A stretch of DNA of 64,000 nt from Escherichia coli (GTDB taxonomy: Bacteria > Pseudomonadota > Gammaproteobacteria > Enterobacterales > Enterobacteriaceae), in assembly GCF_003334335.1 (NCBI RefSeq), contig NZ_QOWQ01000001.1; one strand, written 5' to 3'. The stretch's first letter is position 1. Every line of letters begins with the position of its first letter. This document shows, in pieces, positions 1 through 6,000 of this stretch. Position numbers: made by a program.

Positions 1-3000
1 CGGGATGGTGCCGGTGCTTCAACGATGCAGTCACATTTTGTACAGGCTTTTTTTACCCGTTCTGTGCGGATCACTTTTAGGGCGCTGCTCACCAGTTCCA
101 GTTGTTCTGCACTGACTTCCCCCAGATAATCCAGCTCACCGCCACACTCCGGGCAACAGCTTTCTTCAGGCTCCAGGCGGTTTATTTCGCGGGGCAGATG
201 CTCCGGTAACGGACGACGATGGCGTGACTGTCGCAACTGGCGGGGAACCTGCGGGTCATCCTCTCGCCCACTGTAACGATCGCTGTCCTGTTCGCGTTGC
301 TTCAGCTGGGCCTCAGCCTGTTCAACTTCACGACGCAGTTTTTCAGAACGGGTACCGAACAGCATCCGGCGCAGTTTTTCTATCTGAGCCCGCAGATGTT
401 CTATTTCCCGTTCATCTTCTTCGATCTTTTCTTCGGCACGTGCCAGCACAGAACGCAGGAAGGCCTCCGTCTCTTCAACCAGACTCAGTTGTTGGTCTTT
501 CTGACGGAGGGCTTCAGCCTGCTCAGAGAGCAACCTTTCCAGCTCTGCGATGCGAATGAGGTATTTCTGACTCATGACCGTTTTTATAATGCGGTCAGGA
601 GTTTTTTACAACATTGTCAGTGAGTTAAGGCGGGATGTTTTTGGCTGACGCCAGTCCAGCTTATCGAGGAGCATTACCAGTTGCGAACGGGTAATGGATA
701 CCTTGCCGTCACGTACCGCAGGCCAGATAAACTGGCCTTCTTCCAGGCGTTTGGTGAACAGGCACAGACCATCAGCATCAGCCCAAAGAATTTTAACGGT
801 GTCACCCCGTCGGCCACGGAAGATAAACAGGTGGCCGGAGAAGGGATTATCATTCAGCACATGTTGTACCTGTTCTCCCAGTCCGTTGAAGGATTTACGC
901 ATATCGGTAACGCCGGCAACGAGCCAGATACGGGTACCTGATGGGAGTGAAATCATCTTCCCCTCCCGCTCAGTTCGCGGATCAGCACCGTGAGCAGCTC
1001 TGGCGATGGATTTTCCAGCGTTATGTTACCGTGACGGAACTCCACCTTGCAGGAACTGGCACTGACTCTGGTCTGAGTGGAAGTGGATAAAGACGGCGCA
1101 ATGGCCGCCACAGGTTTTTTCTGCTCATCCGGCGTTATTTCTACAGGTAATAATTCAACGCCAGTGTCAGAAGAGGTCGTTACCGGAAGACGCCGCGAAA
1201 CACGCCCTTCGTTCTGCCAGAGCCTGAGCCATTTGAAAATAACATTATCATTGACGCCATTTTCACGTGCAATCTGTGCAACACAAGCTCCAGGTTGTGA
1301 TGCCAGTTCCACCATACGAAGTTTGAATTCATTCGAATAGTTTTTACGAGGTTCTTTTCGCCAGTCCTGTAATTCCATACTTAGATGTCCGTCTATATCA
1401 GATGGGCGTCTAAGTTACCAATTTTCGTCTGATGGCTACATACGGCGGTCAGTTTACGCTTACCCATTTTGTCACAATTAAGTTTGATAAAGCAGGTCAC
1501 CTCTGCACTGAATCTGCTCCAGTGCCTCATTGGTCTCCGTCCTCCCCTTTAAACTGCCGGATAAGACTGCTGCACGTAAGCGGCTCGCCAGAACCGTATT
1601 GATATTTACTGAGAGGTCAGATCAACTTTCCAGGGCAACAGATCGCGTACCCGGTTTGCCGGCCAGTCCTGGAGATGCTCAATAACGTAACGCAGCCATT
1701 TTTCTGGCTCTACATTGTTCAGACGGCATGTGCCGATCAGCGAGTACAACACCACCGCATGTTCGCCACCGCTGTCGGAACCCGCGAAGAGCCAGTTTTT
1801 CCGGCCTACGGCCACTCCCCGTAAGGCATTTTCAGCGATGTTGTTGTCGATTTCCACCCAGCCATCGTTCGCATAGTACGTCAGTGCCGGCCACTGGTTA
1901 AGTGCGTACGCGAACGCCTTCGCCAACTCTGAGTGTCGCGACAGGGTCTTCATCTTTTCCGCAACCAGCTTTCCAGGGATTTCAACAGCGGTTTCGTTTT
2001 TCGCTGACACCATGGAGGGAGTGGTTAAAAGAGCAACGAGAAAGTGGTAATTATAACGCCAGCCGGATATGGCGGGAAATGGTGGCCCGGGGATTTACAG
2101 GCAGTGAAACCATCGTCAGGGATGCGGTTGCCAAATGGCGTAAAGGCTGGAACCCACCGGTTACTACTGCCGTCAGACTTCCTTCAGTCTCCCGGGTAAG
2201 CCGCTGGTTGATGCCCTGGAGAATAACCAGGGATGAAGAAAATTATGCTTCCCGATTTATTAGTCTGATGTGTGAAAAAGAACCTGAGCTGAAAATAGCG
2301 CAGCAACTGGCACTCGAGTTCTACCGTATTCTGAAAACCCAAAATAAATCACAGCTAAGCAGTTGGTTCACTCGAGTCCACGAAAGCGGTTCAGCAGAAT
2401 TTCGGCGCGTGGCGGCGGGGATGGAAGCTGATGCTGCAGCTATATGTGAGGCAATCAGTAGTCGCTGGAGTAATGGTGTTGTCGAAGGTCATGTAAATCG
2501 CCTGAAGAAGATGCTGAAACGCCAGATGTATGGTCGAGCAGGATTTGAACTACTCAGGCAGAGGGTAATGAGTCCACTGGCATGAAAATCTCCACCCAGG
2601 TTGCGGAAGAGCCACTTTTCATCCGTCGTTGACAGTTATACCGCCAGTCAGAAATATACCGTCGTCAGGGCGTGGAGCTGAGCCGTGCCACACTGGGTCG
2701 CTGGACCGGTGCCGTTGCTGAACTGCTGGAGCCGCTGTATGACGTCCTGCGCCAGTATGTACTGATGCCCGGTAAAGTTCATGCGGATGATATCCCCGTT
2801 CCGGTCCAGGAGCCGGGCAGTGGTAAAACAAGAACTGCCCGGCTGTGGGTCTATGTCCGTGATGACCGTAACGCCGGTTCACAGATGCCCCCGGCGGTCT
2901 GGTTCGCGTACAGCCCGGACCGGAAAGGTATCCATCCACAGAATCACCTAGCCGGTTACAGCGGTGTGCTTCAGGCAGATGCTTACGGTGGTTACCGGGC

Positions 3001-6000
3001 GTTATACGAATCCGGCAGAATAACGGAAGCTGCGTGTATGGCCCATGCCCGGAGAAAAATCCACGATGTGCATGCAAGAGTGCCAACCGACATCACCACG
3101 GAAGCCCTGCAGCGTATCGGTGAACTGTATACCATCGAGGCAGAAGTCCGGGGATGTTCAGCAGAACAGCGTCTGGCGGCAAGAAAAGCAAGAGCCGCGC
3201 CACTGATGCAGTCACTGTATGACCGGATACAGCAACAGATGAAAACACTGTCGCGTCACTCGGATACGGCAAAAGCGTTCGCATACCTACTGAAACAGTG
3301 GAAGGCCCTGAACGTGTACTGCAGTAATGGCTGGGTGGAAATCGACAACAACATCGCTGAAAATGCCTTGCGGGCGGTCAGTCTGGGTCGTAAAAACTTC
3401 CTGTTCTTCGGCTCTGACCATGGTGGTGAGCGGGGAGCGCTAGTGTACAGCCTGATCGGGACGTGCAAACTGAATGACGTGGATCCAGAAAGCTACCTTC
3501 GCCATGTGCTTGGCGTCATAGCAGACTGGCCGGTCAACCGGGTCAGCGAACTGCTTCCGTGGCGCATAGCACTGCCAGCTGAATAACACATCCCCGTCAA
3601 TACGGCCCTCGCTGTACGCTTACTCATCACCTGCTATTAATCCCCGAGTCAGTACTTCGCGGCCTGACGCGATCACCCTACTCAGTACTTCAGAGCCCGC
3701 CTCCGGTACCTGCCTGGCGATCGCCCCTGTGCAACAAAATAAATCAACCGTTATCAAACCACGATCGTTCGTATGCGCCGCCGATGACGCGCGCCTGAAA
3801 AACGCGTCAATATGAGTTCCCCGGAAGCTTACGATAATACGCTTATGAACATTACAACACGCTCATGCGGAACCTGGATGGGGGAAGGAACGGTGAAGCT
3901 GTTAGCGAATGACCGGCGTTTGTATAAACGCCGGTCATGATGAATGATATTTCAGAATATACCTCGGGCTAAAATACCGGGACAGAGATCAGGCGTGATT
4001 AATCTGCAGCATTTTTAATAACAGAAGTACTGAGCTTACTTTACCTTTGATGATGTAATAGTTATTTCCGTCGGTACTCATTTTTCCCTGAAATAATGTC
4101 ACGGATGTTTCTTCCTGCTGATCCTGCAGGCGCAGTCGTAAGGTCATATTTTTAATGAGCTGAGATCCGGGTGGCAAGGGGTATTTGCTGTCAGATACTG
4201 GGCGACTGAGTCTGATGTGGCGCGTATACAGCCCGTTTTCGTACAGGGTGGCCTCTGTTATGGTGTCAGTGACCAGCATGTGGGAGACAATGCTGTATTC
4301 TTTTTTAAAGCACCCACCAGAAACGGTGATTGTAATGATAATGGTCTTCTCGATCGAGATGTAAATACCCGTTTCGTTATACTGTCCGTATCGGAACCAT
4401 GAGAACTCAGTTGCATTCCAGCCATGCTCCAGAATATGTGCATTTTTTTGCCTGATAGTTTCTTTTTTTATTCGCTCATGTTTAAGGCATAACAGGCAGA
4501 TAAATAATGTCAGAAAAAGAAAGCTAATAATGAGAGCAAGAGCGATATAGTCTGTCACAGGGTAATACATATTCTCTCCGGTAGAAGAAGGGCCGCAAAC
4601 GCGGCCCGGGCTGTTATCAGAAAGAGTAACGGAAGTTGGCGTTGATCGCGTTATCCACGTTGTATTTACCAAATGCCGATTTCTCAAACTCAAGACCGAA
4701 GCGAAGATTATCGCGAATTTCGGCGTTGAGACCAACATTCATGAGAATACGACCGTCTTTTTCACCTTTGATACGTTTCTCACCGGACGCATCACGCAGT
4801 ACGGTTTCACCGTTGGCAAACAGGTCAAACTGGTAGCCAAGGCCGGCGCGGGCTGTGACTTTCCAGTCCTTACCGGAGAAGGATTTACCCACATCAACAC
4901 CGGTACGCCCAATCAGCGGATTAAAGTCCTTATCCTTCATGGTCACGCTCATTCCGCGATCCTGCCAGTCGAACCGTTTACCTGATACGGCCCCATAAAC
5001 CAGTTCTGCCTGCGGCTCAATCCAGGAGTCTTCTGTTACATGATAGCGGTAGCCTGCTTCAGCACCCACATACAAGGAATGAGAACTGTAGTCTTTTGTT
5101 CCGAGTCCAGCAAAGGTCGCCGAGTACTCATTATCATGGTGAACATACTTACTAATCAGGTCGATATAGGCACCAGAGTCAAATATAGCGGAAGCATACA
5201 GACCTGCCCCGACGGACTTCGTCTTGCCACTGAATGCATTACTGCTGGCATGACTGTCGGTATACGTCATAGTCAGACCAGTGAAAAGGTCAAGTCCATC
5301 CAGCTCATGTTTTTTATCCACACCAATCTGCACATGGGTGTAGTTGTCACTGTATCCACCAGAAGCTGAACCTGCTCCGCTCATGATGCGGGCCCATGCA
5401 CCGGCCTCGCCATTGGTGTCACGCAGATCCCCCATTCGTTTATTCAGGTTGTTGACTTCTGTCAGGAAGGCTTTGTAATTACCGGACATATACGATTTTG
5501 CTGCACCGGAAGATGCTGTATTTTCAGCCACCTTATATCCGGTCAGGGTCCACGTGGTATGTTCCTGATCCTCTTTCGTGCTGATCACAGGAGATATGTT
5601 GCTGAAACCTATGGCCTGAGTACTGGCTTTAAATATCTCTTTATTGCTTCCTTTTGGGGCTGTTATCAGGTCAACGTTTAATCCTGAGTTATTATTTCCC
5701 ACTTTCTGTATATCGACCGACAGACTGTTATTGCTTCCGGTTAACTGATTTTTAACAATGAGTTTATCCGATTGATTTACAGACTGGCTCAGATCAGCCC
5801 GCATAATCACAGCAGTATTAGTGGCATCCAGTGTGTTTACTGTCACAGTATGGAAACCCGAATTCTCTATGTTACTAAACAACAAAAGACTGTCGCGGGT
5901 TTTTAATGATTGCAGGGCTGACTGTCCGTTTACTCTCCATAAGGTGTTATACATGCTGGCTGAGGCAGCAGGAGCATCAATACCTCCGGTATAAGAAGTA

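Follow-up and report, generated by a model that had tools for sequence, protein, structure and literature searches.

Reciprocal ISCro1-like/ISEc8 chimeras in an IS66 cluster of Escherichia coli as probable products of a past 1.5-kb inversion

We analysed an insertion sequence (IS) cluster at positions 1-3623 of a 64,000-nucleotide stretch of Escherichia coli DNA (NCBI RefSeq assembly GCF_003334335.1, contig NZ_QOWQ01000001.1; the whole stretch is called the window). The cluster holds an IS66-family element that crosses the left window edge (copy 1), two remnants of the IS66 transposase gene tnpC on opposite strands (fragments 2 and 3), and a piece of an ISL3-family element between them. The initial annotation had read the IS66 pieces as copies or simple fragments. 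This does not hold for fragments 2 and 3, which are reciprocal chimeras of an ISCro1-like element and ISEc8, and a past inversion of about 1.5 kb between these two elements most probably made them; we give this explanation as a whole a probability of about 0.9. The two fragments are divided as follows.

1576-1822, minus strand: ISCro1-like right inverted repeat (IRR) and last ~220 bp of tnpC, the outer part of fragment 2 (90-98% identity per 50-bp bin to ISCro1 versus ~60% to ISEc8)
1823-1865, no strand: first arm of a 43-bp perfect inverted identity, the longest exact match between fragments 2 and 3
1866-2008, minus strand: internal segment of ISEc8 tnpC, the inner part of fragment 2 (~98-100% to intact ISEc8, with ISEc8-type sites)
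2635-3326, plus strand: internal segment of ISCro1-like tnpC, the inner part of fragment 3 (92-98% per 50-bp bin to ISCro1, with ISCro1-type sites)
3327-3369, no strand: second arm of the 43-bp perfect inverted identity, from the exact match and the informative-site comparison
3370-3623, plus strand: 3' end of ISEc8 tnpC and IRR, the outer part of fragment 3 (98-100% to ISEc8, including the terminal repeat)

Both fragments are genuine pieces of IS66 tnpC, as first proposed (1576-2013, minus strand, and 2640-3586, plus strand), with family matches far beyond chance. The open reading frame (ORF) of fragment 2 (1606-2013, minus strand) encodes the C-terminal 135 aa of TnpC and matches positions 288-386 of the transpos_IS66 profile (E=1.1e-35). 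The ORF of fragment 3 (2672-3586, plus strand) encodes the C-terminal 304 aa and matches positions 118-384 (E=7.2e-94). The terminal motif TACGCTTAC was read at 1455-1463 and 3615-3623, and GTAAGCG at 1576-1582, exactly where they had been reported. Both tnpC frames are truncated, without the N-terminal third to three quarters of the protein, and are presumably inert.

We tested chimerism by measuring identity in 50-bp bins against annotated copies of ISCro1 and ISEc8, before and after in silico re-inversion of the segment. Against intact ISCro1, fragment 3 was 92-98% identical up to about position 750 of the fragment and 46-68% identical from there on. Against ISEc8, it was 54-80% identical in its 5' part and 98-100% in its 3' part. 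Fragment 2 gave the mirror image of this pattern, and every informative site in 1576-1822 was of the ISCro1 type. Intact ISCro1 elements in many genomes (~95% identity) matched the fragment 3 query (2617-3623) only to window position 3374. After re-inversion, the long piece was uniformly ~94% identical to ISCro1, including the terminal repeat (93.9% overall, mostly 92-98% per 50-bp bin). The short piece was 98.4% identical to ISEc8 overall (98-100% per bin), which identifies it as ISEc8, and intact ISEc8 matched the re-inverted junction query contiguously at 99.1%. In general, the fragments are 94-100% identical in DNA to the annotated copies of these elements.

Three independent, simply truncated IS66 copies, without any recombination so far, would agree with the clean IS66 profile match and the ORF that each piece gives alone, and also with RefSeq, where the pieces are labelled just as partial IS66 transposases. 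This history is nevertheless very improbable due to the abrupt and reciprocal switch between ISCro1 and ISEc8 identity in both fragments, seen at 175 informative sites, and no intact element spanning the switch point was present among the matches listed (more than 6,000 matching records).

The two orientations of the segment were counted by junction-specific queries, one for the window junction and one for the parental junction. The window junction was found in 16 complete genomes. For the parental junction, the count was 26 complete E. coli genomes, among them 55989 and the genomes of the O104:H4 outbreak, after one unrelated match (89.6% identity) was removed from the 27 reported. At first, O104:H4 matched the window in pieces; with ~1823-3369 inverted, the window aligns end to end with the O104:H4 segment, and a breakpoint scan of the re-inverted window against O104:H4 gave a score plateau at 1824-1863. 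In the parental arrangement, the tnpC end of the ISCro1-like element faces that of ISEc8 in inverted orientation, and the outer junctions are the same in both states. Strain SCPM-O-B-12142 has the same context (iha, the ISEc43-like copy, a hypothetical gene and sigA), and the orientation of the segment is its sole difference.

To assign parent types, both arms of the parental state were aligned with both window arms, and the 175 sites that differ between the parents were scored. Each window arm switches parent type once, bar a few isolated sites. On one arm, the change falls between 1828 and 1822; on the second, it falls between 3326 and 3358. Three sites (1828, 1831 and 1834, equivalent to 3364, 3361 and 3358) are ISEc8-type on both window arms. 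Parental identity at the crossover covers 31 bp (1835-1865), and 43 bp after conversion. This stretch encodes a conserved 12-residue motif of IS66 transposases, which is why the ISCro1-like element and ISEc8 are identical there and only ~60-70% identical elsewhere. One switch per arm, with three sites of a single type on both arms, is the mark left by homologous recombination in which a reciprocal crossover is accompanied by a short heteroduplex or conversion tract.

The same tract bears on the direction of the change. An inversion is symmetric and two states alone give no polarity, and the window arrangement could have been ancestral with the 55989/O104:H4 arrangement derived from it. We consider this highly unlikely. 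Intact ISCro1 and ISEc8 elements, which are present in a great many unrelated genomes and plasmids, run collinear with the 55989-type pieces; the window pieces are collinear with nothing else. Moreover, the two arms agree in type over the three-site tract only in the window state, as they should in a recombination product. Since intact ISCro1 and ISEc8 are common and match the 55989-type pieces over their whole length, the 55989-type state carries the native sequences.

Starting from the 55989/O104:H4-type arrangement, the segment ~1823-3369 (~1.5 kb) has flipped in the lineage of the window, leaving each fragment with the outer end of one element and the inner part of the other. The flip probably occurred by RecA-type homologous (homeologous) recombination, with the crossover in the 31-bp identity within arms that are ~60-70% identical. 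Heteroduplex repair would then have converted three adjacent sites, extending the identity from 31 to 43 bp. About 25 bp is usually quoted as the minimum identity for efficient recombination in E. coli, and inversions between inverted copies of IS1, IS3, IS5 or rrn occur in E. coli chromosomes. The present case resembles these in the reciprocal exchange at inverted repeats, the unchanged outer junctions and the conversion tract. It differs in that the partners are different IS species, ~60-70% identical, in that the exchange used 31 bp of identity within a conserved motif, close to the quoted minimum, and in that the inverted segment is only ~1.5 kb long and contains no functional gene.

A programmed invertible switch, in which a site-specific recombinase drives phase variation, or a transposase acting on inverted IS66 ends could also produce two orientations. 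Stretch 1576-3623 is indeed bounded by inverted IS66-type repeats (27 nt, 74% complementary), and both orientations are found in nature. A programmed switch would have a dedicated recombinase, short specific inverted sites at its breakpoints and a promoter or gene with an output that depends on orientation. However, there is no invertase gene in the segment and no recombinase ORF in 1464-3700; the breakpoints lie inside tnpC coding sequence at the identity stretch, away from the terminal repeats; the two states share the same outer junctions; no 8-bp duplication surrounds 1576-3623, with flanks TGCTGCAC and TCATCACC; and homologous recombination is indicated by the conversion tract at the crossover. 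We regard a switch or a transposase action as having close to negligible probability, and the segment does not classify as a phase-variation switch. As a separate candidate, we considered 1576-3623 as a mobilisable unit between inverted IS66 ends and rejected it, the same two 8-bp flanks being different. Finally, an assembly artefact at repeats is hardly credible: transposons are numerous in GI-4, the corresponding island of 55989/O104:H4, and make its automatic assembly difficult (Grad et al., PMC3551546), but the two orientations come from 16 and 26 independent complete, mostly long-read, assemblies of various laboratories and countries, and arms only ~70% identical with 43 bp exact do not confuse assemblers.

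Some points weigh against the inversion between ISCro1-like and ISEc8 remnants as we describe it, or narrow it. The element names derive from RefSeq product names and from alignment to RefSeq-annotated copies. The ISCro1-like piece is only ~94-95% identical to the ISCro1 copy used and may belong to a sister element of ISCro1, not to ISCro1 itself. By the ISfinder naming convention, an element shares at least ~95% DNA identity with the reference along its length, and as the identity to ISCro1 is borderline (93.9%), we call the piece ISCro1-like. RecA/RecBCD recombination and template switching at an inverted repeat cannot be told apart from the sequence. The order of the older events (insertion of ISEc38, arrival of ISEc8 and a deletion, described below) is a reconstruction, and no genome with an intermediate was found. 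The segment may also have flipped once or repeatedly. Its flanks are 99.9-100% identical to the window in the 16 flipped genomes versus 99.8-99.9% in the others, which weakly suggests a single event.

The piece between fragments 2 and 3 belongs to ISEc38, an ISL3-family element.

2006-2634, plus strand: 3' 625 bp of ISEc38, 5'-truncated (98.4% to the RefSeq 'ISL3-like element ISEc38 family')

The ISL3 fragment proposed at 2030-2585 is thus present, with limits that were too narrow: the ISL3 DNA starts at 2006/2010 and ends at 2634, and the C-terminus of the transposase is coded up to 2585. Its ORF (2031-2582, plus strand) matches transpos_ISL3 (E=5.6e-31) and Pfam DDE_Tnp_ISL3 (PF01610; 2.5e-13). 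The assignment to ISEc38 is based on the 98.4% DNA identity over 625 bp including the right end, which stops at the same point in three independent contexts, and on the fit of the C-terminus to ISL3 profiles. It is not a complete ISEc38: about 1.1 kb at the 5' side, comprising the left end and the bulk of the transposase, is gone together with any target duplication. At its truncated side the piece is joined to ISEc8 by a 3-bp microhomology, the two homologies overlapping at 2006-2008. At its other side, the IS66 homology of fragment 3 begins at 2635, directly after the ISEc38 end.

Three 3' remnants therefore lie beside copy 1: a kilobase from an ISCro1-like element, 625 bp from ISEc38 and 445 bp from ISEc8. 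We infer that ISEc38 had inserted into the ISCro1-like tnpC, because the right end of ISEc38 abuts that gene at 2634/2635. An illegitimate deletion would later have joined the interior of ISEc38 to the interior of ISEc8 at the 3-bp microhomology, and probably took the 5' side of each of the three elements. In two unrelated genomes, O145 RM8843-C1 (NZ_CP035772.1, L007 1-3041) and NZ_CP080133.1 (L008 900-3300), an ISEc38-type ISL3 element also lies directly against IS66-family sequence, the junction being with ISEc8 tnpC in one and with IS66 tnpB in the other. These cases hint at a preference of ISEc38 for insertion into IS66 elements.

Copy 1 occupies the left end of the window.

1-575, minus strand: 5' part of tnpC, the DDE transposase gene of copy 1 (ORF 3-575, transpos_IS66 E=1.4e-16); the gene crosses the left window edge
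606-956, minus strand: tnpB, 116-aa IS66 accessory protein (NCBIfam IS66_TnpB, 119.9 bits)
953-1378, minus strand: tnpA, 141-aa IS66 accessory protein (NCBIfam IS66_ISRel24_TnpA, 84.2 bits)
1434-1463, minus strand: left inverted repeat (IRL), ending TACGCTTAC at 1463, with a 22/30 match to the other element end
1464-1471, no strand: right copy of the 8-bp target-site duplication (TSD) CCATTTTG, the same 8 bp being present at the other element end
1472-1575, no strand: 104-bp remnant of the target sequence, contiguous with the left flank after removal of the element and one TSD

The initial annotation had an IS66 with intact tnpA and tnpB at 1-1463 on the minus strand, and both genes scored above the NCBIfam cut-offs (50 bits for IS66_TnpB and 74 bits for IS66_ISRel24_TnpA); the element is complete and only cut by the window edge. 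In genomes with 100% identity, its tnpC is an intact 1614-bp coding sequence, and in several genomes RefSeq names the product 'IS66-like element ISEc43 family transposase'. The whole of copy 1 measures 2532 bp in a matching genome (locus L001), where its far end runs from 10932 onward (GTAAGCGTCAAC...). Its ends read GTAAGCGTCAACGG... and GTAAGCGTAAACTG..., agree at 22 of 30 positions and have the GTAAGCG-type start of the repeats. The TSD CCATTTTG lies on both sides (the other copy at L001 10924-10931) and has the 8 bp typical of IS66. The tnpA-tnpB-tnpC order, the terminal repeats and the 8-bp TSD place copy 1 in IS66, and it shares this layout with ISEc43, ISCro1 and ISEc8. Copy 1 alone is whole; the other pieces are 3' remnants, with fragments 2 and 3 each half ISCro1-like and half ISEc8. 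The 104-bp spacer (1472-1575) gave no IS match, and the left flank is recognisable only at its far left, beyond the window edge, where it is a 3' remnant of IS66 tnpC.

These data show copy 1 to be a simple insertion of a complete IS66 element. The intact ORFs, the perfect TSD and a new related insertion in O104:H4 are indirect signs that it may be able to transpose. The remnant in its left flank is a fifth IS66 piece, located between iha and copy 1 (L001 ~10546-10735, ~1.27-1.45 kb upstream of window base 1), and it consists of a GTAAGCG end and ~190 bp from the 3' coding part of tnpC, with tblastx matches to several IS66 elements (E~1e-16).

A further IS66 piece had been noted at 9843; it is present, and its true extent is larger.

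9823-10199, plus strand: internal tnpC fragment, ISEc43-like, the fourth fragment (93.4% over 377 bp to copy 1 tnpC; transpos_IS66 E=1.6e-21)

Fragment 4 is inverted relative to copy 1, ~10 kb away. Around it lie other mobile remains, all on the minus strand: a TraF conjugal-transfer pseudogene, the C-terminal part of an IS110 transposase (E=3.7e-19) and an IS3-family remnant, at 8835-9839, 10240-10605 and 10633-10803.

The initial annotation had supposed that these repeats could mediate deletions or inversions across the island. The local part of this idea stands, with the 1.5-kb inversion (16 versus 26 genomes), but no island-scale inversion was found in 5,426 complete genomes. The cluster contains three IS66 species (ISEc43-like, ISCro1-like and ISEc8), and most pairs of pieces are only 64-70% identical. 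The longest exact matches are 43 bp for fragments 2 and 3, 50 bp for copy 1 and fragment 4, and at most 17 bp for the other pairs; most pairs are therefore poor substrates for homologous recombination. An inversion between copy 1 and fragment 4 would give ~74% coverage of the query 3624-12000. None was present in the ranked list from the 5,426 genomes, where coverage drops from 84% to 62% with nothing between. Likewise, no deletion between the direct repeats of fragments 3 and 4 was present among the matches listed; these share at most 14 bp of exact identity, and a deletion is therefore not expected. An apparent island-scale inversion in O104:H4, in which the sigA side seemed moved, was rejected, as it is really an extra ISEc43-like insertion, with the 8-bp duplication CTTACGAT, together with the small inversion.

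Structural heterogeneity between genomes was found as the inversion itself, a deletion variant in O121, extra IS elements in O104:H4 and FDAARGOS_944, and tracts of single nucleotide polymorphisms (SNPs) in copy 1. In FDAARGOS_944 (NZ_CP065613.1, L014 4461-5976), a 1.5-kb ISSso6-like IS110 element is inserted in the last bases of the copy 1 terminal repeat, at window 1459/1460, with 2 bp (CT) common to both junctions. This suggests that an ISSso6-like IS110 relative targets IS66 ends. O121 strain 201805972 (NZ_CP119441.1, L013 5788-6000) carries a deletion variant of the island beside dicD (the pheU side). In this variant, 213 bp that are annotated as the N-terminus of an IS110 transposase take the place of the stretch from window -850 (inside copy 1 tnpC) to 3634 (12 bp beyond the ISEc8 end), and the left breakpoint is the position where the homology of fragment 4 to copy 1 ends. 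A link between the IS110 pieces was considered and rejected. The ISSso6-like element of FDAARGOS_944 compared with the window, which has the IS110 fragment at 10240-10605, matched only in the shared copy 1 flanks; it had no match in the O121 locus, and the 213-bp stretch of O121 had no match in window 1-12000. In strains G8, G1/2 and DETEC-S792 (L010, L011 and L012), tight clusters of 10-50 SNPs occur in copy 1 within otherwise near-identical loci (window -105..906, and in one strain also 3031-3089 in the ISCro1-like part of fragment 3). They resemble gene conversion in patches, with paralogous IS copies at other sites of the same genomes as donors.

About a dozen complete E. coli chromosomes share the first 3.7 kb of the window at 99.9-100% identity, and 15 genomes cover all of it at 98.7% or more. 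The gene order in the matching genomes is iucC-iucD-iutA ... iha, the IS cluster, a hypothetical gene and sigA, which encodes a SPATE autotransporter. In the window, a tRNA-Phe gene lies at 16372-16447, followed by yqgA, speC and core genes; the region is therefore the pheV-proximal end of an aerobactin-iha-sigA pathogenicity island. A scan of 1-17000 with Rfam gave nothing beyond this tRNA. Within the island, sigA (4617-8474, minus strand) has a premature stop at codon 783 of 1285 (window 6126-6128). The plus strand has T at 6127 versus C in SCU-104 and S1-CAM-02-A, which changes the Trp codon TGG to TAG and splits the gene into ORFs of 782 and 466 aa; in other genomes sigA is broken by an IS3 insertion. 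An intact 1171-aa ORF (10945-14460, minus strand; RefSeq 'AAA domain-containing protein') lies between the IS debris and the island integrase, and IS1 breaks it in strain SW071611.

The aerobactin-sigA island at a tRNA-Phe gene of 55989/O104:H4 was described as GI-4 and placed by pheU (Grad et al. 2013, PMC3551546). The window island has the same gene content (iuc/iutA, iha as in 55989, and sigA) and is 99.8% identical in DNA over the 8.4 kb adjoining the IS cluster. It differs in its location at pheV beside yqgA-speC, whereas the paper has GI-4 by pheU (PMC3551546), and in the flipped IS segment; O104:H4 has in addition the ISEc43-like insertion with TSD CTTACGAT at window 3828-3835. In the literature searched, we found no paper on this inversion; what was found concerns the GI-4 island or lists these IS names in a general way.

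The region is a graveyard of nested IS elements, all of them known and already annotated in RefSeq. The biological weight of the inversion is small: the remnants are presumably inert, and as the outer junctions are unchanged by the flip, no effect on neighbouring genes is expected. For annotation, it means that partial IS66 transposases can be recombinant chimeras and that naming by the best match can mislead. For lineage marking, the orientation of the 1.5-kb segment and the neighbouring insertions and deletions offer an inexpensive structural marker by which to tell apart sublineages of the aerobactin-iha-sigA island, which is common to 55989/O104:H4-type and other E. coli. It is doubtful that the 31-43-bp motif stretch is a general recombination hotspot between IS66 species; if it were, mosaic elements and small back-and-forth inversions should appear wherever two IS66 species are close neighbours, and the present segment, with 43 bp of identity on both arms, might still flip within populations. 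For recombination, the locus provides a clean natural case of exchange between partners ~60-70% identical, at about 31 bp of identity and with a visible conversion tract.

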